Position numbers and translations under genes: made by a program. A stretch of 64,000 bases of DNA. Origin: Dictyostelium discoideum (taxonomy: Eukaryota). A model generated the notes under the pieces. That model ran no database searches. It was not told the origin of the DNA and was given only the letters and a program-made list of their open reading frames with translations. The first letter of the stretch is position 1. Each line of letters begins with the position of its first letter. The stretch is from assembly GCA_000004695.1 (NCBI GenBank), contig CM000151.3, positions 4,768,001 to 4,832,000 of the forward strand, read 5' to 3'. Below are positions 104 through 60,639 of the stretch, one piece after another.

Positions 104-5452
<5,349 letters not shown>

Positions 5453-10747: not shown

Positions 10748-14720
<3,973 letters not shown>

Positions 14721-22572: not shown

Positions 22573-24748
22573 TTATTTTTTAATTTTAAAATTATCAAAT
22601 GGAGCTAATTCATAATTTGCAATTGATTCAACTAACCATTCAGTTTTAACCATTGGAGCAGTAACTTTTTTAACTTCATAAGATTTAGTTGATTCTTCAG
22701 CAATACAAATTGAAGCCAATTCAATTGATTTACAAATTTTACCACCTAAATTTCTAATTAATTCTTCTTTTGATTTTCTATTAATACCACTTGGATCAGC
22801 TTTACCGGCCAAAAAGAATGTTTTACCAGAGAATAAAGGTTCATCACCATTCTGTTGTGATAAACGAGCCATGTTTGGACCTGGATGTTCATCAACTTCG
22901 TGATCTTCTTCGTTGTCAATGATTTGTTGTTGTTTAAAGGATTCCTCTAACCAAGAACGTTTTAAGACCCAAACTCCTTTTGAAACACCCAAAAGGAATT
23001 TAAGTGTTCTATTCTTTGAATCATTCATAATGACATGAGTACATTCTTTAGGATCATCTGAAACGGTTAACCCAATTACTCCCATCGACTCTATAATTGA
23101 ACTACGTTCACTATCATTAAAACCTGATAATAAAACCAATTTCAAATTATCTAAATCCTCTTCCTCTACCTCTGAGAAACTTTCATCATCTGATTCTTCT
23201 TGATGTTTTTTACTACCTCCTTTTTTCTTTTTACCTTTTGATGATTTCTCATCCTCTACTTCACTATCATCACTATCATTTTCATCCTGTTTGGTTCTTT
23301 TTGGCGTTTTTTTACCAGATCTGGTTGTATCACTTTTTGGTGATTTCTCTGCTTTTTTGGTTTTCTTTTTTGGTGATTCTTTTTCTTCATCTTCTTCCTC
23401 TTTTTCTTTTGGTTTTGGTTCAACTGATTTTCTTTTTGATGGTGTTGTATTTTTAGTTGGTGTTTTCTTTTTTGATGGTGATGTTTCTTCCTCATCATCA
23501 TCTTCTACTATTTTAGAAGTTTTCTTTACTGGTGTTTTCTTTTTTGATGATTGTTCTTCCTCATCATTATCTTCTTCTTCTTCTTCTTCTTCTTCTTTTG
23601 ATGTTTTCTTTACTGGTGTTTTCTTTTTTGATGATGATAATTTTGTTTCTTCCTCTTTATCATCTTTTGATATTTTCTTTACTGGTATTTTCTTTGTTGA
23701 TGTTTTCTTTTCTTCCTCTATTTCTTTTTTATTTGGTGTTTTTTTTGAAGTTGATGATTTAATTTCTTTATTTGGTGTCACTGCTGTTGGTACTTTAAAT
23801 GAGGATTTCTTTACTTTAGTGGTTTTCTCAACCTTTTCTTCCTTTTCTTCCTCTTCATCATCTTTTAATTTTTTATTTGATTTTTTAGTGGCAGCTGGTG
23901 GTTTCTTTTTTGTTTCTTTTTCTGTTGATTTCTTTGGTGTTTCATCTTCTTCCTCTTCCTCTTCCTCTTCTTTCTTTTTAGATGATTTTGAATCTTTTTT
24001 AGGAGTTGATTTCTTCTTTGGTTTTTTCTCTTCCTCATCTTCTTCCTCCTCCTCCTCCTCCTCCTCTTCCTCTTTATCTTTTTTTGATTTTGATTTTGAT
24101 GATGGTGCTTTCTTTGGTTTAGAAGCAGTTGGTTCAGATGGAGTTGACTCTTCATTATTGTTCTCCTCTTCTTCTTCCTCTTGATCTTTTTTCTTTTTAG
24201 TACTCTTTTTATCTGGTTTTTCAATTGGTGTAACTTTCTTTGATGGAGTTATATTTTTTTTGAATTTTTTTTGATCAGCTGACTCTTTATCATCATTATC
24301 ACTTTTAGCTGCATCATCAACTTTAATTTCTTCCTTTTTAGCTCTACTTTGTTTAGTTGGTGGTGGTGGTTTAGTTTTTTTAACAGGTGTTGCTGGTTTT
24401 AAATCTTCCTCTTCTTCTTCTTCCTCCTCTTCTTCAACTTGCTCTTTTGTTTCATTACCTTTGTAAGGTACTAAATCTTTACCATCTATTTTAAAAAAGA
24501 TATAATATATAAATAAGGATAAATTTATTACTTATATAAAAAAAATTTAACTTTTTTAAAAAAAACTTACTCTTTTTTTGAGATGACTCAGATTGTGATT
24601 TTTGAGATGATTTAGACTGTGAAGATTTAGATTGTGATGATTTTGTTTGTGAAGGTGATTTATTTATTGTTTGGTCAACTAATGGAGAAATAACAAGAGC
24701 AGTTGTTGTGACATCTGATGTTATTTTAGAAGATTCTATTTCTGTTGC

Positions 24749-37682: not shown

Positions 37683-37978
37683 ATGATTGTCGAAGTTGAA
37701 TTAGGATTTTTATTATCAACATTATTTTTTACAATTATTTCAATTATTTTATTTTATTTTTTTATTAATAATAAAAATAATTTAATTGATCAATGCCAAG
37801 AAGTAACAAAATTAAATAATAAAGATAATAAAATTGTAAATAATAATAATAATAATTATAATAATAATAATTTTAATAAAATTGAAGAAATTAATGATGA
37901 TAAAAATAAAGAAATTATAAAATTAATTAATAATAGTAATAATAAAAATTTAAAAATTAAAATCCAAGAAATAGATAG

Positions 37979-38030
<52 letters not shown>

Positions 38031-40419
38031 TTAAATAAAAATAGTAATGAAATTTTTAGAAATTTTAAAATATTTAGTGGTTCACTTTTAGTTATTGATC
38101 AAGATTTAAATATTATATCATCATCCGAGAGTGTTAGAGATATTTTCTCAAATATTAATGATATTAATGGTGTGAATCAACAAGTAATTGGTAGTTTACA
38201 AAATTATAGTTTCATAAATTTAGTTCATCAAAAAGATAAAGATAGAGTTTCAACATTTTTAAAATTAAAATTTAAAAATAATAATAATATTAAACATCAA
38301 CAATTTTCTGAAGATATTATTAATGAAAAAGATGAATTAAAAGAAATTCAAATTGAAGATAATAAAGAATTAATTATTATCAATAATAATAATAATAATA
38401 ATAATGATAATGTATTAAAATTTGGAAATAATAATAGTAATAATAGTAGTATTATATTATTTCAAGGAGTTTATCATTTAAATAATACAGATTTATCAAA
38501 ACCATTTAATTTACAAGTTTCAATTTTACCATTTATTTCTGAAAATTATATTGTATTATCATTAAAAGATTTATCACCACCACCATTAAGATTACTTTTA
38601 AATAAAACTTCTTCTGCATTATCACCAAGATCATTATCATCATCTTCATCTTCATCACCATCATCATCGAATAATAATGGTAATACAAACAATAGTGGAT
38701 CATTATCACCAAGATCTTCAAATTCAAATGGTAGTGCAGTTTCACCAAGAAATGTTTCAAGTAATTCAATGTCACCAAGAGGTCAAAATAGTGATCGTAG
38801 TATTTCATCACCAAGAGGTTCATCATCGTCGTCGTCATCATCATCAAATGAATTAGCAATTTCACCTAGAAATAGTAATGGTACAATTTCATCACCAAGA
38901 ACATCAAATCTTTCAATTGAAAGTGTATTAAATAATAAATCAATTGATATGATTTCACATTTATCACATGAACTTAGAACACCAATTCATTCAGTTATTG
39001 CATCTATTCAATTGTTTAGATCAACCATTTTAACAGTTACTCAAAATGAATATTTATCAATTATAGATACATCAGCCAATACATTATTGGAATTGGTATC
39101 CAATGTATTAGATTATAAAAGAATTAGATCAGGAAAGTTAACATTGAATAATGTTGATTTTAATCTTTGTCATGTGATTGAAGATGTTTGTGCAATGGTA
39201 AGTCCACAAGCTCAAGCAAAATCATTACAAATCGCCTCATTTATCTTTATTCATTGTCCATTGAGTTTCTATGGTGATCCAATTAGATTAAGACAAGTTT
39301 TATTGAATTTAATTGGCAATGGTTTAAAGTACACTAATAAAGGTCAAGTTTGTATCTCTGTTGAGCCTGAACAAGTAAATGAACATTGTATGTATTTACA
39401 TTTCCAAGTTAAAGATAGTGGTATCGGTATAAAGGAGGAGAATATGTCAAAATTATTCGCTGGCTTCTCTCAAGTTAATAATGGTGGTACCACACAAGAG
39501 GCATTGGGAAGTGGTTTGGGTTTGGCAATATCCAAGGATTTAGTAGAGTTAATGGGTGGTAAAATTTGGTGTTCTTCAAATGCCACTCAAAATAATGGTG
39601 AAGCTGGTTGTACATTCCATTTCGTTATACCATTGGAAACCAATCCAAAACAATTACCATGTCCAATTCAAAATTTCAATGGTTTATCAGTATTGGTTGT
39701 CGATAAAAATCCATATATTCAAACTGTACTTTGTCAATATTTAGAGGGTTGGAATTGTCAAGTCATTAAAAGTTCCGATATAAAAGAGGCATCAAATAAA
39801 TTAAAAGATCTAAGAAGAGAACAAATTGAAGTGGTTATGATTGATATCGATAATATCGATTTCCGTGATTTCATTCAATTTAAAGATGCTTTTAATCGTT
39901 TGGAATTCGGTAGAATCGGTTTAATTACAATGTCAAGTGATAGATCAATGGTAAATGAAATGGGTTTTGGCACTTCAAAATTAACAAAACCATTCCGTCA
40001 ATCTCATTTAGTAGCTTGTCTATTAGCTAGTATGCCTGAACATTCTTCATCAACTACAAATTGTTTTTCAAATATTGTTGGTATGAATAGTAATATTAAT
40101 AATAATAATAATATTAATAATAATAGTAATAATAATAACAATAATATGCAAACTCATAATAGTAATAGTGTTTATGGTAATGGTAATTATGGTAATTGTA
40201 CTCCATTCTCAAATAACAACAATAGAATTCATATGATGAGTTCAGGTGATAAACCAAGTATTAATAATAGAAGAATGTCAATCTCATTGGGTAAAATTCC
40301 AACTTTTAATTCTGGTGGTTCAAATTCACCAAGAAGTAAAAAATTATTTGAGGAAGTTTTACAACAACAACAACTTCAACAACAACTTCAACAACAACTT
40401 CAACAACAACAACAACTTC

Positions 40420-40470
<51 letters not shown>

Positions 40471-41360
40471 TACAACAACAACAACAACAATTAAATACAA
40501 TTGATGATGATTCAAATAATTATTGTAATACAACAGGTACTATGGATAGTATTGATGAAATTAATAAAAATAATTATAGTGATAGTGAAAGTGATGAATT
40601 AAATGATGATCAAGCACCAATTATAGCACCAGTTCAACAATTATCATTTGGTCGTGTTACTAGAAGACATTCTATTGATATTATTATGTTTGAAAATTCT
40701 AGAGAATTATCAGAATTAAGAAATCTTGAAGATTCAACTAGATATTTGTCACCACGTTCAATGAATAATAATAATGGTAATAATGATAATGGTATCAATG
40801 GTGGTAGTGGAAACTCATTATTTGGATCATCAATTAAAGAAGAGATTGGTGGTACTTCTGATACAAGTTCATTAGCACAATCACCAAATTCATTATCACC
40901 AAGAGCCCCAACAAAGATTATGATATTAGATGATAATCCAGTTAGCTTAAAATTAATGCAACGTATCTTGGAAAGTCGTGGATTCGAATGTTATCCATTC
41001 GATTGCTCAGAGAAAGCCGTTGCTCAATTGGATCAAGTTAATCCTGCCATCATTTTCATGGATTGTGAAATGCCAAAAATGAATGGTTTCGAATGTACTC
41101 AATTAATAAGAAAGAGGGAACAAGAATCACTTTGTCTATTAAAAGATCGTAAGATTATTATTGCTTTGACTGCTCATATTAATCCTGAAATTCAAGTTAA
41201 ATGTTTCGATGCTGGTATGAATGATTTCATCTCAAAACCATTCAAACCACAATGCTTAGAATTAATCCTTAGAAAATGGGAAGATTGTATAAGTAATAAT
41301 CAATTAAATTATAACAATAGTTTAATTAATAATCAAACTACAATTCAAGAGCAAGTTTAA
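37683..41360 (+). CDS. Hybrid sensor histidine kinase (Dictyostelium dhk family): N-terminal TM segment, HisKA + HATPase_c, and a C-terminal receiver domain; 1,225 aa, single exon
   Basis: H box 'ISHLSHELRTPIHSVIASIQLF'; N box 'LLNLIGNGLKYT'; G1 'KDSGIGI'; G2 'GSGLGLAISKDLVELMGGKIW'. The receiver reads 'KIMILDDNPVSLKLMQRILESRGFECYPFDCSEKAVAQLDQVNPAIIFMDCEMPKMNGFECTQLIRK...ALTAHINPE' with the phospho-accepting Asp in 'IFMDCEMP'. Ser-rich and poly-Q linkers are present. I cannot tell which dhk paralog this is. Confidence 0.85.
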
Positions 41361-42740: not shown

Positions 42741-44557
42741 CTAATTACCAAAATAAAAATTTGAAAAAATAACTAAAACTATTAAAATTGATAAAGTGAT
42801 TAAACAAATTTGTGCAATAATTTTTGAGTATCTTCTTGGAATTAATGATAAACTTTTAAAGTGATTAGTTGTAATATTAGTATTTTCTTCAGTATCTCTT
42901 GTTTCAAGTGAAAGTTCTTTTAATATCTTTTCTTGTTCTGGTGTAAAAAAACTTTCATAATTTTCACCATTTGTAAAACCTTCTTCAATATTATTTAATT
43001 CTATTTGATTTGATTCTAGTCCTTCTTTTCCTTGTTTTTGTTTATTATTTATTTTATTTTCAAATTTTTGTTGTTTATTATAATTATTTAATTTATTTTT
43101 AAAGTTTAAAGATTTTATATAAAGAATAAATGGTATAATGAAATTTGCAATTGAACCAAAGAATAAAGAAGAATAATTTGAAATTATATTTAACCAATCA
43201 CCAGTTTGAAATGGAATTACAATTAACCAAGGTAAAACTATTGAAATTAAATTTGCAATCCAAGTTGGAAAGAATTTATTTTGAGTTAAATTATATCGTA
43301 CAATGATTGAAAAAACTGGTATTGTACTTGCCAATACAATAAAAGGGAATAAATAAACTGATAATTTTGAAAATATATTTGCTTTTTTAGATAAATTAAT
43401 TAAACTAAGAATGGTGGAATTTGGAGACATTGAAGAGAAAGTTAATGCACCAAATACACCAACAATAATGAATAATACCGTTGAAAAACTTGTTGAAATC
43501 CAAACTGATCTTTTTAAATTAACATTTGGTTTAGACTCATTTACCCATGATGGTATAGTTGTAATGAATGCATAATTAAACATACAATTACCAATGATTT
43601 GTGATATACCACTCATATGGTTACCAATAGTTGGTAAATTATCAGTTGATAATCCAATCAAAATGAAAATAACAACCCAACTAATTACAATTACCAACAT
43701 AATGATAACACATGCAATTTGTATGATTATATTATCATTTAAATTAAAGAATGCCAATGGTACAACCAGAACTAGTATAGCTAAATAACCAATTGTTATA
43801 AACATATAATCATCTTGAAATGGTGATCCACCATCACCACTATTCTCAATTACACATATCCACCCATTGGAAAAAGAGATCCCACATGTTTTTTTGAAAA
43901 TAAATACCATTAAACTATCGAAAACTTGTGAACATATGATAATACTTGCAATATTTGTAATGATTAAACTTATATTTATAAATAATTGTGATACTAAATA
44001 CATTGATTTACCAAAATAAAATCTACATATCATTGTAAACTCTATACGTAATGCAAATTTATTATTTCCTGGAATCATTGACATTGATTCTATTATAAAT
44101 AATGCCGATATTCCACTTAAACCTAACATTAAAATATATCCTAATAATGATAAAAACCATCCACCTTGTTGAAATTGATAACTAATATTAACCATTCCTG
44201 GTCCTGTACAATTACCAATTAATAAACATATTCCACCAATTGTTCCACTTTTTTTTTAATTTTTTTTTTAAAACAAATTAATTTTTTTTTTTTTTATATA
44301 ATTTATTAAAATTAATAATAATATATTTATATATATTAATTATATACATACATTGATTTTAAACCAAATTTTTTTTTAAAATCTTCATCTTTTTGTGGGT
44401 TTGGAAAATTCTCTAAAATTTCTTCAGTTGATGATATTGAAGAAGATGAAGTATTTGCTGTATCGTTTGTTGAAATTATTGTTGTTCCACCAGAAGTTTT
44501 TGTTGGATTGGGAAATGAAATTAATTCAACATTTTCATTTGTATTTAAATCACTCAT
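42741..44557 (-). CDS. Transmembrane amino-acid transporter (Aa_trans/SLC38-like), ~570 aa. Model: complement(join(42741..44247,44352..44557)) with a phase-2 intron (AT|GTATGT...AAAAAAAAAG|T)
   Basis: There is a cytosolic N-terminus, then 'GTIGGICLLIGNCTGPGMVNISYQFQQGGW' (the Aa_trans TM1 GxG signature), followed by ~10-11 hydrophobic helices. The C-terminal tail is Asn/Lys-rich. Confidence 0.7.
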
Positions 44558-47158: not shown

Positions 47159-48451
47159 TTAAAAAGTTAAAACACTATTTTTTAATCTTGATTTTTCAGA
47201 TTCAAATACTAATTTATGAGAAGCAAGAGTATCATCAGGACCAGATAAAATTTGAGTTGGATCATTTTCAGAGACTGCATAAATAAATGATCTCATGAGG
47301 TAATAATCTGAAGCACCATGATTTGACATTTTTGTATTTTGAATTATTTGTGGTTTAAAGATTTCTTTATCACCAAATCTAAAGTCATCATAGACGATGT
47401 CATAACCATTGTTACATTCTAATTGACCCATTGAACCAAAGATTCTAATTTTACGTACACACATACTCTCTGTGAATGCAACCATACTAAAAGAGGAGAG
47501 AGCACCACCTTCAAATTCTAAATTCACAACTTGCTGATCGACTACGTCATTATCACTCTCATAGACACATCTACCATAGGGACCGTTTTCAATTGCCAAT
47601 TTAACATTCTCTTTTGTTGGCTCTCTATCTGGTACTAGTACATCCCTTTTCCAAGGATAATGCTCTAAATAAATCTTTTGAGCACTGTATGGACACGTTT
47701 TGCTAATTGCGCATTCTACACATCTCTTTGCACTACCAGCATTGGTAGGTTTTTTCTCCTTTTTAAAGTATGTCAAGCTACCAAATGACGATACTTTCTT
47801 GCACTTTTTTCCGCCCATAAAATAATGAATCAAGTCAAGATCATGACACGACTTTGCCAATAGCATGAATGTCGAGGTTGAGAGTTTTCTCCAATTGCCT
47901 CTGACATAGGAATGGGCGTGGTGGTAGTACCCCACAGGCTCCAAATGCTGGATGTTTAGCACCTCCCCTATCAATCCACTGTCTATCAATTGCTTGATTT
48001 TAATATTAACCGGTGAGTATCTCAATACGTGGCAAACAGATAACATGACATTGTTGGCTTTGCAAGCTGATGTAATTCTCTCACAATCTTTTTCAGTGAT
48101 AGCTAATGGTTTCTCTACTAATAAATGATACTTTTTATTAGCAAATGCAATTGCAGGCTCACAATGTAATTGGTCGGGTGTTGCTATTAACACTGCATCT
48201 GCGAATTTATCCATTGATATTATGTCTTTCCAATTTTCAAATATCATATCACTTGATAATCCAAATTCATTACCAAGTGTATCTCTTCTAAATTTAATTG
48301 GATCACATACTGCAACAATCTTTAATCTATTTGGTCTTTCAATTGAATATCTACTATAAACATATCCTCTTTGACCACACCCAATTATTATTAATTTTAC
48401 AATTTTATTATTATCAAATTTCTTTTCTTCATTTTCAATATTATCTTCCAT
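47159..48451 (-). CDS. Gfo/Idh/MocA-family NAD(P)-dependent oxidoreductase, 430 aa, single exon
   Basis: N-terminal Rossmann 'KLIIIGCGQRGYVYSRYSIERPNRLKIVAVCDP' and 'AVLIATPDQLHCEPAIAFANKKYHLLVEKPLAITEKDCERI' (the conserved EKP motif) are present. The C-terminal alpha/beta domain is typical of the family. Confidence 0.8.
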   Translation of the reverse strand: MEDNIENEEKKFDNNKIVKLIIIGCGQRGYVYSRYSIERPNRLKIVAVCDPIKFRRDTLGNEFGLSSDMIFENWKDIISMDKFADAVLIATPDQLHCEPAIAFANKKYHLLVEKPLAITEKDCERITSACKANNVMLSVCHVLRYSPVNIKIKQLIDSGLIGEVLNIQHLEPVGYYHHAHSYVRGNWRKLSTSTFMLLAKSCHDLDLIHYFMGGKKCKKVSSFGSLTYFKKEKKPTNAGSAKRCVECAISKTCPYSAQKIYLEHYPWKRDVLVPDREPTKENVKLAIENGPYGRCVYESDNDVVDQQVVNLEFEGGALSSFSMVAFTESMCVRKIRIFGSMGQLECNNGYDIVYDDFRFGDKEIFKPQIIQNTKMSNHGASDYYLMRSFIYAVSENDPTQILSGPDDTLASHKLVFESEKSRLKNSVLTF

Positions 48452-51659: not shown

Positions 51660-54302
51660 TTAAAATTGATATTTCCATTTTAATGGTACTAAATTAAAAG
51701 AAATATTTGTAATTGATAAATTTGTTTTTAATGAACGTTCAAAAACTTCTTTTGAACGATAAGTTAATTTATTAAAACTAAGATCTAAAACTTGAATATG
51801 AGTATTTGTAGCTAATGATTCAGCAAAGATTATACCAACTTTATCATTTATTTCATTTTCATTCATATTTAAACGAATTAAATGAGTACCATCATTTGCT
51901 AATAATGAAGCAATTGGTAAACTACCTTTATCACCTAAAGAAGTATAAGAGAGTTCTAAATGAATTAATGATCTATTTACTTTTAATGAATCTGCAATTA
52001 ATTGACCAAATTGAGGTGATAACTTGTTTTGACTCATATTTAAAAGTTTTAAAGTTTTATTATTTGATAAAGCCTCTGCGATATATTTGGCACCAGCATA
52101 GTCGATTTGATTACCAGAGATATCCAACGATTTCAATGAACAAGTTGAAGAATTTAATGCACGAGCAATACCCTCTGCAAAACCATTACCTAAACTATTG
52201 GTTGATAGAGATAGGGCAGTAATAGTTTTATTATTCGATAAAGCATCGGCTAATTCCCAACCACCTGAAGTATCGAAAATTCTATTATCGGAAAGATTTA
52301 ATCTTGTAATTGTACTATTAACTTCCAATGCTCTCGCAATCGATATTAAACTTACACCCAATTTATTAGATTTAAAATTAATGTCCACTAATGTAGAAGT
52401 TTTCTTTGAGAGTGTTTTTGAAATCTCTGATGCACTTGCACTTTCTAATTGACAATTTGATAAATTCAATTCATTCAATACGGTGGTGGTTGATTTACCT
52501 AATGATTCGAAAAATACAGCACCCGATTGATCATCGATATGATCCAAATGAACCGATTTCAAAGTACTATTATGAGCCAATGAATTACCAAGCATAATTG
52601 CAGTTTGACCATTGATATAATTTAAACGTAAATAAAGTCTCTCCAATTTATTATTGGTTTTCATTGCTCTTGCCAATGCAATACCACCCTCTGGTGCAAT
52701 ATGATTGTAAAAGAAATCAATGGTTTTCAAACTTGTCTTATTGGTTGACATAAGTTGTGCCAATTTTATAGCTGTTGCATTACCAAGTTTATTACCACGA
52801 AAATCTATCGATTCAATAGTAGTATTCTCTGATAGTGCATTTATAACTGCATCTATTGAATCATCATCTAAATTACCATGACGAAATGATAAATGAGTAA
52901 TGGAAGTATTAATTCTCAATGCATTACCAATTGCCATGAAATTCTCTGGCGAGATCCATTTTTGATAGAATCTAAAATAAGTCATCGAATTTGCAACCTC
53001 AAAGAATTGGGTGAATAAATTTTTACTAAATGAATTTGATAAGATCGGTTTAGTGGTAGCTTTCATGAATTTCTCAGGTACACGATCTGGCATTGTATGT
53101 TTTACAACATTCATAAATTTTTGAAATGTTGATGATTTATCAATATGCATTGCAACATAGTAAAATTTAAATTTCTTACCACCCTCAATTAAACCTTGTG
53201 TTGTCAATTGAATTAATGAACGTAAATGTTTTGGTGATTTAACAGTGAAATAAGTGAATACTTGTGGAGCTAATTTACATCCCCATAATTTACAAACTAA
53301 ACAAATTGTTTCCAATTCTAAATTTGGATTCTTTTTAACTATTATACCATTGCCACTATTACTACCACTATTATTTAAACTATTTAATAATGATGATCCC
53401 AATGGTGAACCACCATCAGAACCTGATGAACCACCTGACATACTTAATTGACCATTGTTGTTGCTTCCGTTATTGGATGCACTTTCACCCTCTGGTGAAC
53501 CACTAAATCTTATCTCTGATTTCTCTAAATCAACTTTATTCTCTATTAAATAATATAAAATCTTTGTTATAACTGTATGTGGTAAATTATTTATATTCAA
53601 TTTATCTGTAGATTTAAAAAATGTTTTACTTAATGATTTCTTTAATTGACCATGTTTTGATTCTTTATTCTCTTTTTCTTTTTTACTTGATCCCAAACTT
53701 GTTGTAATTGTACTTGTTTCATCATCTTCATTAAAATCAACTGCTTTATTTAATTCTACATTTTTATGACGTCTAATATGATGATGTCTATGTTCTTTAT
53801 CTTTATGTTCTTTATCTTTATGTTCTTTATCTTTATCCTTATGTTCTTTATCTTTATCTTTATGTTCTTTATCTTTATGCTTATGTTCTTTATCTTTATG
53901 TTCTTTGTGTTCTTTATCTTTATGTTCTTTATGTTCTTTATGTTCTTTATGTTCTTTATGTTCTTTATGATCATCATTATCATTGGTAGTTGTATCTTCA
54001 AAATCTGATGAATCAGGACTAAGAGTAAGTTCACCTAATCCATCTGGTAAATTTTTATTTTTTTTACTACTTTTCTTTTTATTTGGTGAATGAAATGCTG
54101 ATGCTATGAATGCTAATGGTGATGATGGTCTTCTAGGTTTAGTTTGTGGTGGTGATTTATGAAGTTTTGTATTGTTTATTGTTGATAACTCTTCGGCATT
54201 ATTATCAAACGATGATGATAATCCACCACCTTTTGGTGGGGAATTTTGTGGTATTAATTCTATACTATCCACTAATATTTTTGGTGGTGGTAATTCACTC
54301 AT
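51660..54302 (-). CDS. Leucine-rich-repeat protein (ribonuclease-inhibitor-type LRRs) with an N-terminal His/Lys/Glu/Asp repeat and a possible F-box-like motif; 880 aa, single exon
   Basis: The C-terminal ~520 aa contain about 16 repeats of the RNI-type 28-29-aa LRR (e.g. 'LNLSDNRIFDTSGGWELADALSNNKTITALSLSTNSLGNGFAEGIARALNSSTCSLKSLDISGNQIDYAGAKYIAEAL'). The N-terminal low-complexity block is '(HKE)4HKDKEHKEHKDKEHKHKDKEHKDKDKEHK...'. 'LPHTVITKILYYLIENKVDL' fits an F-box consensus weakly. Confidence 0.75.
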   Translation of the reverse strand: MSELPPPKILVDSIELIPQNSPPKGGGLSSSFDNNAEELSTINNTKLHKSPPQTKPRRPSSPLAFIASAFHSPNKKKSSKKNKNLPDGLGELTLSPDSSDFEDTTTNDNDDHKEHKEHKEHKEHKEHKDKEHKEHKDKEHKHKDKEHKDKDKEHKDKDKEHKDKEHKDKEHRHHHIRRHKNVELNKAVDFNEDDETSTITTSLGSSKKEKENKESKHGQLKKSLSKTFFKSTDKLNINNLPHTVITKILYYLIENKVDLEKSEIRFSGSPEGESASNNGSNNNGQLSMSGGSSGSDGGSPLGSSLLNSLNNSGSNSGNGIIVKKNPNLELETICLVCKLWGCKLAPQVFTYFTVKSPKHLRSLIQLTTQGLIEGGKKFKFYYVAMHIDKSSTFQKFMNVVKHTMPDRVPEKFMKATTKPILSNSFSKNLFTQFFEVANSMTYFRFYQKWISPENFMAIGNALRINTSITHLSFRHGNLDDDSIDAVINALSENTTIESIDFRGNKLGNATAIKLAQLMSTNKTSLKTIDFFYNHIAPEGGIALARAMKTNNKLERLYLRLNYINGQTAIMLGNSLAHNSTLKSVHLDHIDDQSGAVFFESLGKSTTTVLNELNLSNCQLESASASEISKTLSKKTSTLVDINFKSNKLGVSLISIARALEVNSTITRLNLSDNRIFDTSGGWELADALSNNKTITALSLSTNSLGNGFAEGIARALNSSTCSLKSLDISGNQIDYAGAKYIAEALSNNKTLKLLNMSQNKLSPQFGQLIADSLKVNRSLIHLELSYTSLGDKGSLPIASLLANDGTHLIRLNMNENEINDKVGIIFAESLATNTHIQVLDLSFNKLTYRSKEVFERSLKTNLSITNISFNLVPLKWKYQF

Positions 54303-55276: not shown

Positions 55277-56946
55277 TTTTTTATTTTCAATTAATTTTAA
55301 AAAATCTAAAAATAAACCGACAAAATAACCTCACATTCTTTTCGGGTTACATTTTTAAAATAACTACTAAGGGTGGTAATACAAGCCCTATCGAATTAAA
55401 TTAATAAAAAAAAAAAAAAAAAAAAAAATAATAAAAAAAAAAATTATAATATTAAAAACTAAAATTCTTAATTTAAAACAATTTTTTTTTTTTTTTTTGT
55501 TATTACTGAAATCTGAATCATAATGCAACGACAATTTTTATAATATTTATCTTATGAATCTGAATTTGAATCTGATACATTAATTTTTTATTATAAATAA
55601 TTATTGACACCACTATTTCATTTCCCATTATTTTTTATTGGGAAACAAAAAGCCCTGTTTAGTGATTTCAAAAAAAAAAAAATAATAAAAAAATAAAATG
55701 TGTATATATGTATATTTGAAAAAAAAAAAAAATCAATATTAAAAAATAATTTGAATGGCAACTCATTTTGATTACGTTCAATATTTAAATTTCAATTAGT
55801 TTATAGTTTTTTATTTTTTTTTTATTATTATTTTTTTTTTTTAAAAAAAAAATTATCTCAAGTGATTCAAATAATGATCAGAAAATAAAAAAAAAAAAAA
55901 AAAAAAAATGAAATAATGGCAACAAATCGAACAGGTATGCAATCAAGTTTCAAATAACCATCATGAAATATTTAAAAAAATAATAAAATTAAACAATGGG
56001 CAACAAATCAAACAGATATACAATCCCGTTTCAAATAACCATCAAATAAGCATCAAAAAAAAAAAAAAAAAAAAAAAAATTAAAAATGGTAAACTTATGT
56101 TATGTGGTAATTTAATTTCAAATAAAGATCAAGAAAAATATGGAAAACTAGTAAAAATATTAAAAAAAGTTATTTTTATTTTTATTTTTATTTTTTTTTT
56201 AATTTTTATTTTTTTTTCTTCGATTTCCAAGATTACTTTTCCATCATTTTCATAATAAAATTTAGGCCTATTATTAAATTATTATGATAAAAAAAAAAAA
56301 TAGTGTTGAGGGAAAATATTTTATTTTGCTTTGGTATAAAATTTTTTTTTTATTTTGGTTTACAAATCTCGATGGATATTTAACTCTTTTTTTTGAGAGA
56401 GAGTTTTTTTTTATTTTTTTTTTTAATTTATTTTTGCGCCCACACACAAAGCAACACATACAAAAAAACCATGTCAGTGACCACGTTGACAATTAAAAAA
56501 ATTACATAAAAATAAAAATAATTTAAAATTATTTTTTTTGATTTTTTTTTTTTTTTCCAATTTTTTTTTTTCTTCTCACATTTTTTTTTGAATTTTATTT
56601 TTTATTATTTATATTTTTTTTTAAATTTTATTTTTTTTTTTTTTAAAAATTTCTTTTTTTTTTTTTTTTTTTTTCTCAAAAATTACTTTTTTTTTTTATT
56701 ATTATTTTTGATAAAATAAAATTTTAAAGTTTTATACATATAGTTTTTTAATAAACAAATAATAATAAATAAATAATAATAAATAAATAATAATAAATAA
56801 AATATATAAATAAATATTTTAATAAATATAAAATTTTTTTTCACTTTTTTTTTTTTTTTCTTTTTGTGTATATAAATTAAAAAAAATATAATATAAAATA
56901 TAAAATATAAAATATAAAATATAAAATATAAAATATAAAATATAAA

Positions 56947-57156
56947 ATGGTTGAATTAGAATCAATGTCATCATCAAGCGAATGGTTTTTAAATAATAAC
57001 AGTAATATTCATAATAATACACACAATCATAATCATAATAATAATAATAACAATAATAATATAAATAGTAATAATCACGGCCATAGTGCAAATAGTAGTG
57101 CACACAACCACAACAACAATAATAATAATAATACCAATAATAATAGCAACAATAGC

Positions 57157-57194
<38 letters not shown>

Positions 57195-57762
57195 ACAAAA
57201 TACAAATAATGGTACATTTTTAACACCATTACCTGTATTAACTAATAGTAGTACTGGTTTGGGAAAAAGTATTGATTGGTTATATACAAACACCTCAAAT
57301 ACCGACTCACATAATATAAATTCAAGTAGTAATAAAGTTACAAAACTTTCAAATGGATTTTCTTTATTAAATCAAGATGGTACTCAATCACCATCATGCT
57401 TTTTAAATTTATCCTCAACTGGTAACCACGAAGATCCTGTACAAGTTCCAATGAACAATAATCCACAAGATCTCTTATTCCAATTTAATATTTCACCACA
57501 ATTACAATCACAAAATAATAATAGTAGTAATAATAATAATAACAATAATAACAATGGTAGTAATACTCCATTAAATGGTAGTAATGGTAGTAATAATAAT
57601 TATTCATCACCAATTTCACCAGTACCACAATACCAACACTCTGCTGGTTCTTCACCAATCCAAGAGTATCCATATTATTCACCATCATCATCACCCCATT
57701 CAAATGAATCAACCTCACCAATTACAGTTATTAAAGATAGTGGTAGTATTATAAATCCAATC

Positions 57763-57815
<53 letters not shown>

Positions 57816-58902
57816 TAATAATAACAATAATAATAATAATAAAAACAATTTAAATAATAATACATTCCAATTTTCATCATTAAAAAGTACAACTGGTATT
57901 GCACCACCATTACAAACCGATTATCATTTATTATATAATTTTGTTCAACAAAATTTTTCTGGAAAACCAGAAGATTCATTATTAAACCAAACTTTAAATA
58001 ATAATAATAATAATAATAATAACAATAATAATAATAATAATAATACAACAATCCAAACTTCACCACAACCACTTGTTTTACCACAAATTCAAAATCCATT
58101 TTTACCATATAATATTTCGACTCCAATTTCAGTTCCAAATAATATTTTATCATCAGCTCAATCATCAACAAATTCATCACCAAACAACAACAACAATAAT
58201 AATAATAATAATAACAATATTTTTTCAACTGTTAATAATAATAATAATCTCGTAAATAATAACAGTAATAATATGGAATTAGATGTAGATAAACCATTTT
58301 CACAAGAAAAATTTTATTTACACTTAAAATCAATTGTACCAAGTTTTAATGAAAATTTTGAAGCATCATCTGAATCTGCACAATCTGAATCATCTCAAGA
58401 AAGTGATTATGATGCACTCAATGAACGTAATAGTGGTGTTAAGAAGAGAGGTAGAGATGAAGATCAAATCGATACATCTGGTCAAGTTGTTTTATCACGT
58501 GAACATGTTTTGAAATTATCAAGTAAAGAAATTGAAGAATATGTTTCACGTTTAAAGATGCACCATATTCTTACTCAAGCCGAGGAAAAAGAATTGAAAA
58601 AACAAAGACGTTTAGTAAAGAATCGTGAATATGCTTCACAATCTCGTTCTCGTAGAAAGATTTATGTTGAGAATATTGAAACAAAACTTCAAAAAACAAA
58701 TCAAGATTGTGCTTCAATTAAATCTCAATTAAATTCAGTTAAAGAGGAAAATAAAGCCTTAAAGAAACAATTGTACAGTTTAACTAATACTCTTAAAAGT
58801 AATCCTTCTTTAGCTGAAGCATTTGGAAAAATTTTCTCTCCAATAGGTAATAATAAAACTTCTTCTGCTACATTATTTGTAAGTTTTATTTATTTAATTT
58901 TA

Positions 58903-58943
<41 letters not shown>

Positions 58944-59492
58944 AAATAAAAAAAATATACTAACTTTTTTATAATTTTTAGGTATTTTTCTTTTTATTTA
59001 CATTTACATTTTTATTCCAATCTTCTACAGTTACCTTTAATTCAGAGTATGTTTTATTTTTTTTTAAAATACCATTAGCGTTCATAAAATTTATATTAAT
59101 TTTTTTTTTTTTTCTCTTTTTATAGTAGGGTATCTTCAATTCAACGTAATCTTTTAAGTTTAGAAGAAACTCAAGCAACAGAATGGAACATAAAGAGAGC
59201 CATTCTTGAAGAAACTAAACAATATGTCGATTCTTTGTTAACCTCCTTATATACTTCAAAACTACAATCTTTATCAGAAACTCCTTTAGATACATCTAAT
59301 TATATCATCAACAACAACAATAACGAATCAACTTCCGAAACAACAACAAACAACAAAGTAGTTTCGACATCTAGTGATGATATTTCAAATGTTTTATCAA
59401 ATCTTTCTGTTTCCGATAAAGAAGTTCCTCAAAAGTGTAAAGATTCATCTGATTTAAAATGTGATTCTCCCCCACTTTCACCTTTAAATTAA
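56947..59492 (+). CDS. bZIP transcription factor with a C-terminal transmembrane segment and lumenal tail (membrane-tethered, ATF6/CREB3-like architecture), ~786 aa. Model: join(56947..58878,58982..59046,59129..59492) with introns GTAAGT...TTTTTAG (phase 0) and GA|GTATGT...TATAGTAG|G (phase 2)
   Basis: Basic region + leucine zipper is 'ELKKQRRLVKNREYASQSRSRRKIYVENIETKLQKTNQDCASIKSQLNSVKEENKALKKQLYSLTNTL' in exon 1. The 65-nt exon 2 encodes 'VFFFLFTFTFLFQSSTVTFNSE', which with the preceding 'SSATLF' gives a ~20-aa hydrophobic helix. Exon 3 continues in frame with 'VSSIQRNLLSLEETQATEWNIKRAILEETKQYVDSLLTSLYTSKLQSL...KCKDSSDLKCDSPPLSPLN*'. The long N-terminus is poly-N/Q/S-rich. Confidence 0.65.
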
Positions 59493-60639
59493 TAAAATTT
59501 TTATTTATTGTTTCATAAATTTTTTTTAGGTTAATCATTTAATCACTTTTTTGTTTAAATATTTCATTTTTTTTTTTTTAACCTTTAATAATATCTTTAC
59601 TACACCCTCATTTAACCCAGTTTTTTATCAATAAAATGACCATAAGATGATTTACAATTGTCTAATGATTGAATATAATTAATATTTACGAAAATGTTAG
59701 AAAAAAATTTAATAATTAATTTTTTACTTAAATTATTTTTTTTAATTAATAATATATTATTTTTATATTTGTTTGTATATATGTCTGTAATACTATAAAT
59801 TGTTATTTATTAGGCATACCCTCTTTTGTAATATTATACATGAGAATGAACAATATTATATACAGAATTATATATTTAATTACAGAAAAAATATAACAAA
59901 CTTTAACTGAGTATTTAAATTTTTTTTGATATTTTTTATATTTTTTTATATATACATAGCCTTCATTTATTTTTTAAGGTAATTAATTTCAAAACAAGAA
60001 AGAATTCTTGAAAAAAAAAAAAAAACTACTTTTATTTCTTTTTTTATTTTCAATTGATCAATCAACAATAACCAATAAAAAGAATAATAAAAAGAATAAA
60101 AAGTAAATGTGAAAAAAAGTTACTATAAAGCAACTAATAATATTTTATTTTTTATTTTTTCAAATTAAACACAATTTTTTTTTTATGTTCCCACCACGAT
60201 TAGTTAATGTTTTTGTGGTGAATTGATGAATTATAAGATTATACCAAAATTATTTTTTATATATTTAATGTACGGATTGTTTTTGATTGATGAGAACAAT
60301 TTAAATAAAAATCAAATTAAAAAAAGTTAATTATATTTTAATTTTTTTATTTTTTAATTTTTTTTTTTGTTTTAATTTCCCCCAACACAAATTTTTTTTT
60401 TTTTTAAAAAATTTTGGTTTTAATGAAAATCGATGTTCCATTGAAATTTTTAGTTGTGTTTGTGAAAAATACTATTTATTTTTTTATAAAATTGAATAAA
60501 AAAAATCCCAAAGAAAAAAAATAAATAAAAAAATAATAATTTATTTTTATTTTTATTTTTTTATTTTTTTATTTTTTTTTTTTTTTTAATTTGTAGTCAA
60601 ATTATTATTATTATTATTATTATTATTATAATTATTATA

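Follow-up and report, generated by a model that had tools for sequence, protein, structure and literature searches.

The stretch of DNA analysed here, hereafter the window, comprises 64,000 nucleotides of the Dictyostelium discoideum genome (contig CM000151.3, positions 4,768,001 to 4,832,000 of the forward strand). At positions 56947-59492 of the window, on the forward strand, lies a three-exon gene for a basic leucine zipper (bZIP) protein, in which a long N-terminal region, the bZIP domain, a single hydrophobic helix and a short C-terminal tail follow one another. In common with CREB3 and ATF6, and with bZIP17 and bZIP28 of plants, the product is probably a membrane-tethered transcription factor of type II orientation that is released by cleavage of the site-1-protease (S1P) type followed by intramembrane cleavage. 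The features of the gene are the following.

56947..58878, forward strand: exon 1, 644 codons, phase 0 (open reading frame list, splice check, tblastn match in frame 1 up to 58896)
57376-57417, forward strand: N-terminal motif DGTQSPSCFLNLSS, conserved in the Synstelium and Acytostelium orthologues
57649-57693, forward strand: N-terminal motif SSPIQEYPYYSPSSS, conserved in the same two orthologues
57919-57954, forward strand: N-terminal motif DYHLLYNFVQQN, conserved in the same two orthologues
58288-58341, forward strand: N-terminal motif DKPFSQEKFYLHLKSIVP, conserved in the same two orthologues and helical in the orthologue structure model
58486..58596, forward strand: conserved helical region, residues 514-550, VVLSREHVLKLSSKEIEEYVSRLKMHHILTQAEEKEL, adjoining the basic region
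58516..58794, forward strand: bZIP domain, residues 524-616 (Pfam, orthologue model)
58867..58878, forward strand: start of the membrane-helix core (A641-F644), where hydropathy peaks over the full protein
58879..58981, forward strand: intron 1, 103 nucleotides, GTAAGT...TTTTTAG, 94% A+T
58982..59046, forward strand: exon 2, a micro-exon of 65 nucleotides (tblastn match in frame 2 at 58982-59047, splice check)
59047..59128, forward strand: intron 2, 82 nucleotides, 85% A+T, GTATGT...TATAGTAG
59129..59492, forward strand: exon 3, 120 codons in frame, TAA at 59490-59492 (tblastn match in frame 3 at 59115-59480)
59145..59156, forward strand: R672-N-L-L675, putative site-1-protease-type motif (alignments, shuffle test)
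59181..59258, forward strand: conserved luminal helix, E684-S709, EWNIKRAILEETKQYVDSLLTSLYTS (dictyostelid orthologues, orthologue model)

The open reading frame list for the window contains a 675-residue frame at 56947..58974, which is a first-exon reading only, terminated by an in-frame stop (58972-58974) inside intron 1. Exon 1 encodes the Asn-rich N-terminal region, the bZIP domain and the first four residues of the helix (ATLF), and GTAAGT begins at 58879, immediately 3' of the codons for ...SSATLF. Exon 2 reads VFFFLFTFTFLFQSSTVTFNS, ends with two bases of a codon that intron 2 splits and is followed by GTATGT; it supplies the remainder of the membrane helix (V645-F656, 58982-59017) and the beginning of the luminal linker. 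The acceptor of intron 2 is a tandem TATAGTAG (59121-59128) in which the AGs at 59125 and 59128 are both in frame, so that the spliced product has 786 residues with the second (junction ...NSEVSS...) and 787 with the first (junction ...NSDRVSS...), a difference of E versus DR. Exon 3 encodes in order the linker, the R-x-L-L motif, a conserved helix, a low-complexity stretch and a C-terminal Cys/SPPL motif, and an AATAAA (59491-59496) overlaps the stop codon. A very high A+T content and long AAT (Asn) runs, both typical of genomes of the Dictyostelium group, mark the region. Intron 1 itself carries a 48-nucleotide A-rich run (58908-58955) that is 91% A, and its retention (58879-58974) would append a few hydrophobic residues and then a poly-Lys run, with loss of the normal helix and tail; the peptide so produced is probably meaningless. 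Upstream, a 7-nucleotide tandem repeat, (ATATAAA) x 11.3, at 56870-56948 abuts the start codon at 56947, and T-rich and TAATAAATAAATAA repeats lie farther from the start (56532-56834).

Comparison with other dictyostelids gives strong support to this splice model. When the D. purpureum orthologue is aligned to the window by tblastn, it matches in three frames (58237-58896, 58982-59047 and 59115-59480), and comparison of the two genomes places both introns at identical codon positions and phases. The splice contexts also agree, with TTATTT/GTAAGT and AATTCAGA/GTATGT at the donors (the slash marks the splice site) and a TATAGTAG acceptor; this octamer stands at the equivalent place in D. purpureum (L001 ~2076-2085), where the gene model takes the first AG. 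In Acytostelium, intron 1 falls exactly after ..SLF/V (TTT/GTAAGT ... TTAG/GTA), a position identical to that in the window, and a further intron separates the helix from R-x-L-L. In Cavenderia intron 1 is gone and the intron between helix and R-x-L-L is kept, whilst transcript assemblies of Physarum and other amoebozoans carry bZIP, helix and tail on one mRNA. Comparison was made at the protein level because nucleotide identity is uninformative at such A+T content: in the exons and introns compared with D. purpureum, shuffled controls alone reach ~60% identity. The exact 786-, 787- and 675-residue proteins have no exact counterpart in the protein collection, from which the entries of D. discoideum itself seem to be absent; the best match is the D. 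purpureum orthologue at 53% identity. At this level of evidence, that of protein and splice-site comparison, the three-exon model is confirmed as correct. The preliminary description, which had proposed the 65-nucleotide exon at 58982..59046 and a third exon continuing in frame for 120 codons, is thus borne out, as are its statements that the frame stops at 58974 and that GTAAGT directly follows ...SSATLF. Two orthologue gene models deserve separate mention. That of D. purpureum (372 residues) begins ~70 residues before the conserved region, in a gene 1.2 kb from the contig end, and its N-terminal part is probably missing or was not called; that of Heterostelium album (P0049, 1131 residues) has 692 residues beyond the helix, where other dictyostelids have 100-180, and looks like a fusion with the downstream gene.

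The bZIP domain is recognized by two Pfam models, both above their curated cut-offs: bZIP_Maf (E 5.1e-9, 37 bits against a cut-off of 22; residues 524-610) and bZIP_1 (E 6.4e-8, 33 bits against 27.6). Its basic motif, NREYASQSR, occupies residues 559-567 (58621-58647), the zipper extends over about six heptads to about L616, and the residue at bZIP position 27 is a Tyr (Y573). The VVLSREHVLKLSSKEIEEYVSRLKMHHILTQAEEKEL region, which occupies the place of the ATB domain of CREB3 and of the extended homology region of Maf proteins, contains invariant or near-invariant columns at L522, S526, E528, E530, Y532, K537, E547 and L550. Farther upstream, the long N-terminal region is taken as genuine coding sequence, because several exon 1 motifs are conserved in dictyostelids; the DGTQSPSCFLNLSS, SSPIQEYPYYSPSSS, DYHLLYNFVQQN and DKPFSQEKFYLHLKSIVP motifs may be activation or regulatory elements.

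The sole strongly hydrophobic stretch of the 786 residues lies at 638-656, with a Kyte-Doolittle value of 1.86 and a summed biological hydrophobicity of -0.7, the helix being called from hydropathy scales in 19-residue windows. Its core, ATLFVFFFLFTFTFLF (residues 641-656), is divided by intron 1, the micro-exon coding for most of it, and a conserved F-T/S-F-T/S pattern runs through the helix. The tail of 130 residues that follows contains a conserved helix (EWNIKRAILEETKQYVDSLL), two N-glycosylation sequons and two Cys; a C-terminal motif, C-x-SPPL(S/T), at 59460-59489 is also seen in other dictyostelid orthologues (SPLTCSSPLSS, SNSPPLTQ).

Between membrane helix and luminal helix lies RNLL (672-675), which begins 16 residues past the end of the core at F656. 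R672 is invariant both in a 16-sequence alignment (A1) and in a 14-sequence alignment (A2), no other residue past the membrane helix being so, and in the former it aligns with the RNLL of fish CREB3L2; the residues surrounding R-x-L-L are not conserved. The motif was assessed in 37 relatives possessing a helix and at least 45 tail residues, with 2000 shuffles of the tails. R-x-x-L occurs within 50 residues of the helix in 28 of the 37 tails (shuffled mean 6.7, maximum 15) and R-x-L-L in 22 (shuffled mean 0.65, maximum 4), figures in which kinship among the sequences leads the shuffle test to overstate their independence. The variants encountered are RNLL, RHLL, RSLL, RRLL, RVLL, RVIL and RKIL. 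Site-1 protease prefers Arg at P4, a hydrophobic residue at P2 and Leu at P1, and these variants fit that preference at the level of sequence. Of what had been expected of the spliced protein, a membrane helix is found as a single hydrophobic peak, the spacing of ~30 residues from zipper to helix is supported by the shared layout of the relatives, and the luminal R-x-L-L motif is upheld by the invariance of R672 and by its excess over shuffled tails. The placement of RNLL nine residues after the helix holds if QSSTVTF is counted as part of the helix; measured from F656, the distance is 16.

An AlphaFold model was made for the D. purpureum orthologue (mean predicted local distance difference test, pLDDT, 65.9). 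Two short helices precede the basic region (residues 89-92 and 97-109), and the bZIP domain forms one continuous long helix with pLDDT >90. RNLL lies within a non-helical linker of low confidence, beyond which the luminal helix (266-292) is modelled with pLDDT ~80-88.

Orthologues are present in D. purpureum, Synstelium, Acytostelium, Cavenderia, Heterostelium and Polysphondylium and, judged by source name, the family also includes Tieghemostelium and, at greater distance, Physarum and the discosean amoebae Luapelamoeba and Balamuthia, together with many unnamed environmental sequences. An exhaustive profile search of 1.84 billion cluster representatives returned 205 at E <=1e-30. Amongst the top relatives with a basic motif, 117 of 123 carry one hydrophobic helix 70-125 residues downstream; counted from the first residue of the basic motif, the helix starts ~70-110 residues on in close relatives and up to ~150 in a few. 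The comparisons establish the gene structure and domain order of the window gene and the conservation of helix and R-x-L-L across Amoebozoa; the idea of a membrane-bound bZIP architecture in an amoebozoan, as originally put forward, extends, by sequence, to relatives of like layout across the group. In a collection of 5.8 billion proteins named matches from beyond Amoebozoa are limited to fish CREB3L2 (E 1.3e-4) and a cluster with rodent CREB3 (E 9.1e-5). Fish CREB3L2 aligns from before the basic motif through the helix at ~30% identity, and the family profile covers CREB3L2 in a single stretch through RNLL (58.5 bits). Against solved structures the best match of the family profile is 6iak_A (E 1e-12), followed by MafG (3.5e-9), CREB1 (1.6e-7) and then ATF2. 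Although 6iak_A is titled 'Uncharacterized protein', the matched stretch appears from its sequence to be a CREB3-type basic region; the profile meets MafG from position 5 and this CREB3-like chain from position 31. Local comparisons with hand-entered sequences, which serve as leads only and not as a test, gave 45 bits for an ATF6 fragment and lower values for MafG, CREB1, XBP1 and GCN4.

A second amoebozoan subfamily, B, is distinguished by an NRESAQ(L/A)SR basic motif and luminal tails of 180-340 residues. It occurs in the same dictyostelid genomes, represented by D. purpureum DICPUDRAFT_149168 (P0268), by P0226 and P0277 and by Cavenderia P0278. These four dictyostelid proteins read NRESAQLSR and have tails of ~250-280 residues, and their C-terminus, ...SYIVCSD...PLTIGLLLPA...ILEISCLVSNIRVWN, recalls the terminal part of the ATF6 luminal domain; the C-terminal Cys motif of the subfamily aligns weakly (14.9 bits) with a hand-entered luminal sequence of human ATF6. 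Members of group 4 and from Tieghemostelium within B have (S/T)H(N/S)(I/L)L at the expected place of R-x-L-L. A Balamuthia relative bears the label 'Activating transcription factor 6' from its source, an automatic label. Because the window protein scores 250 bits with the profile of its own short-tailed subfamily, built without it, as against 122 bits with that of subfamily B, and because its 130-residue tail finds no match in the B luminal profile (3.6 bits), the gene is assigned to the short-tailed CREB3-like type. By this sequence classification the protein would be a member of a CREB3-like amoebozoan subfamily and no strict orthologue of ATF6, and of the ATF6/CREB3-type label given to it at first the CREB3 half, with its short tail, is retained, whereas the long luminal domain of ATF6 is absent.

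Very probably the gene has an annotation already, under one of the bzp names. The supplement tables of a survey of dictyostelid transcription factors held no usable cross-reference to a named bzp gene, and the deposited orthologues are titled 'bZIP domain-containing' or 'hypothetical'. Identity with BzpF, which alone among the CREB-like bZIP proteins of Dictyostelium has been studied well, is ruled out, its bZIP domain lying at residues 360-480 as against 524-616 here.

For such a protein we infer a topology, a residence in the endoplasmic reticulum (ER), two cleavages, a trigger and a set of target genes. The N-terminal ~640 residues, comprising the activation region, accessory helices and bZIP domain, would face the cytosol, residues ~641-656 would span the membrane and the last ~130 residues would be luminal. 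The factor would be kept inactive in the ER until a signal caused its transfer to the Golgi. There, a subtilisin-type site-1 protease would cut after R672-N-L-L675 in the flexible luminal linker, and an intramembrane protease would then cut the shortened stub inside the helix. The freed N-terminal fragment would enter the nucleus and bind DNA as a dimer. Release mechanisms of this kind have been described for the CREB3 family (PMC6616197) and for ATF6 (PMC6025073).

Several observations weigh against this proposal. Literature searches for S1P or for site-2 protease (S2P) in Dictyostelium found nothing. Within the membrane helix there is no Asn or Pro helix-breaker, only Thr, unlike ATF6 and SREBP, and the Pro that stands just after the helix in most dictyostelid orthologues has been lost in the window gene and in D. 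purpureum. A single Lys N-terminal of the helix makes for a weak positive-inside signal as regards topology, and in the orthologue model the helix at the hydrophobic segment has a pLDDT of only ~70. A few relatives are without R-x-x-L, to which the kinship that inflates the shuffle test must be added.

Amongst the alternatives, it is rather unlikely that the protein is tethered in this way and is released by other means, namely a rhomboid- or signal-peptide-peptidase-type protease, proteasome processing or a splice form without the helix, with R-x-L-L serving, for example, in sorting or partner binding. With the helix divided by intron 1 and mostly encoded by the micro-exon, splicing choices could remove it, and retention of intron 1 ends the protein 31 residues on; however, retention needs translation through the 48-nucleotide A-rich run, skipping of exon 2 would break the frame (65 is not divisible by 3) and splicing control cannot be general, because Cavenderia is without intron 1. 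Release by another protease would suit a helix devoid of the Asn and Pro breakers typical of S2P substrates, and Dictyostelium offers a precedent in MrfA, a tethered factor freed by self-cleavage (PMC3828593). Nevertheless, from dictyostelids to Physarum no luminal feature is conserved better than the Arg with its hydrophobic P2 and P1 residues, a motif that recurs at a similar place in fish CREB3L2.

A static role at the nuclear envelope or ER, in which the protein tethers chromatin or sequesters bZIP partners and undergoes no regulated cleavage, is improbable. Chromatin-tethering roles of membrane-bound bZIP factors are reportedly described in a review (PMC12652670), yet a static anchor hardly explains a strongly conserved protease-consensus motif in a disordered linker.

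It is highly improbable that unconventional mRNA splicing by IreA, as known for bZIP60, XBP1 and HAC1, removes the helix part and that the gene is the missing IreA target: although plant bZIP60 is a helix-bearing bZIP handled by IRE1-type splicing, and the target factor of IreA in Dictyostelium was given as unknown in a review (PMC6025073), both introns here are ordinary GT...AG introns of Dictyostelium-like length and A+T content. A search of the mRNA and pre-mRNA for IRE1-type splicing, in the form of CNGNNGN 7-nucleotide loops on a stem of at least 3 base pairs, found 0 (bare motifs, 5 and 4, respectively), and this candidate was rejected. Equally hard to credit is a wrong splice model, in which a soluble 675-residue bZIP protein ends at 58974 and the downstream frames are non-coding, since its support is a mechanical open reading frame call only, whereas exons 2 and 3 match orthologue proteins in the predicted frames (tblastn), the luminal helix and C-terminal motif are conserved, and transcripts of Physarum and other amoebae join bZIP, helix and tail.

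Elsewhere in the window, large open reading frames with Pfam matches encode the following.

104-2170, reverse strand: DUF547 protein
2384-5452, reverse strand: RasGAP
10748-13729, reverse strand: ubiquitin C-terminal hydrolase
22573-23781, reverse strand: tandem BRCT protein
37683-41360, forward strand: hybrid histidine kinase with receiver domain
42741-44195, reverse strand: amino-acid transporter
47159-48451, reverse strand: GFO/IDH/MocA oxidoreductase
51660-54302, reverse strand: leucine-rich repeat protein

The interest of a tethered bZIP factor in this organism lies in the present picture of its stress responses. According to a 2018 review, IreA is the only known branch of the unfolded protein response in Dictyostelium, many chaperone genes respond independently of it, and a search for an ATF6 orthologue was unsuccessful; characterization of the 19 bZIP genes was suggested there (PMC6025073); a review of pathogenic amoebae makes the same statement on ATF6 for Entamoeba (PMC10673212). 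No more than three amoebozoan groups, all tentative, could be delimited in a survey of bZIP evolution; in the dictyostelid transcription-factor survey, MrfA-type factors alone are named as membrane-tethered, and the searchable literature contains no description of a membrane-tethered bZIP in Dictyostelium. It is possible, and is suggested here tentatively, that the window gene and its long-tailed subfamily B paralogue together form the missing IreA-independent arm for ER/Golgi stress or secretory capacity. If so, two-step proteolytic release of membrane-bound bZIP factors at R-x-L-L is older than the divergence of Amoebozoa from animals and fungi, and the mechanism would have been inherited from an ancestor and not invented separately in animals and plants. 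A specific bZIP gene is pinpointed whose architecture predicts tethering and a defined release site, in organisms that also carry a more ATF6-like paralogue. The open question of ATF6 is thereby turned into simple experiments in a tractable haploid organism, with a bearing on the age of regulated bZIP proteolysis. The advance is a functional lead and not a new principle, systems of this kind being well known in animals and plants.

Among characterized systems, the CREB3 family supplies the closest named relatives of the window protein. A tethered transcription factor already known from Dictyostelium is MrfA, an ER-tethered Ndt80-type factor released by proteolysis; MrfA has an unrelated DNA-binding domain and is freed by self-cleavage via a phage tailspike-like chaperone domain, with no R-x-x-L site (PMC3828593). 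The Maf/CNC proteins share the best Pfam match, bZIP_Maf, which spans the pre-basic helices and the Tyr of N-R-x-Y-A, although CREB3L2 also has a precomputed bZIP_Maf match and this model does not discriminate between the families. Maf proteins are, moreover, soluble, and Nrf1, of the CNC group, owes its anchorage to a helix at the N-terminus and is freed by another protease. Plant bZIP17 and bZIP28 resemble the window protein in their bZIP domain, membrane helix and luminal R-x-x-L and differ in their longer luminal domains; no plant relative was identified among the few matches whose source names were checked. The two plant factors are cut by S1P and then S2P upon ER stress (PMC6025073; PMC3935173).

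Subfamily B has the bZIP domain and single helix at equal spacing, but a long tail with a conserved C-terminal Cys motif, and its group 4 members are without a clear R-x-L-L. ATF6 is likewise a type II bZIP protein with an R-H-L-L-type luminal motif, and the NRE-A-QSR core of the window protein resembles its NRESACQSR; however, the ATF6 luminal domain has ~270 residues as against 130, and an ATF6-like luminal motif is lacking in the window protein. The CREB3 family is characterized by an ATB domain of about 30 residues adjoining the basic region (PMC6616197) and by a basic signature, NKxSAxxSR, with a Tyr at position 27 (PMC4736632). The window protein departs from this family in several respects: bZIP positions 13-21 read NREYASQSR (NKxSAQESR in CREB3/CREB3L), with 14 and 16 deviating from the signature; its pre-basic region contains an LT-AEEK-LKK-RR pattern that aligns with CREB3L2, but farther upstream, before profile position 31, it aligns better with the Maf extended region than with ATB; and its luminal tail has no detectable similarity. 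In common with CREB3 and the CREB3L proteins (OASIS, Luman), it nevertheless possesses the order of activation region, pre-basic helices, bZIP, single helix and short luminal tail, a helix ~30 residues past the zipper, an R-x-L-L 15-30 residues beyond that helix and the Tyr at bZIP position 27.

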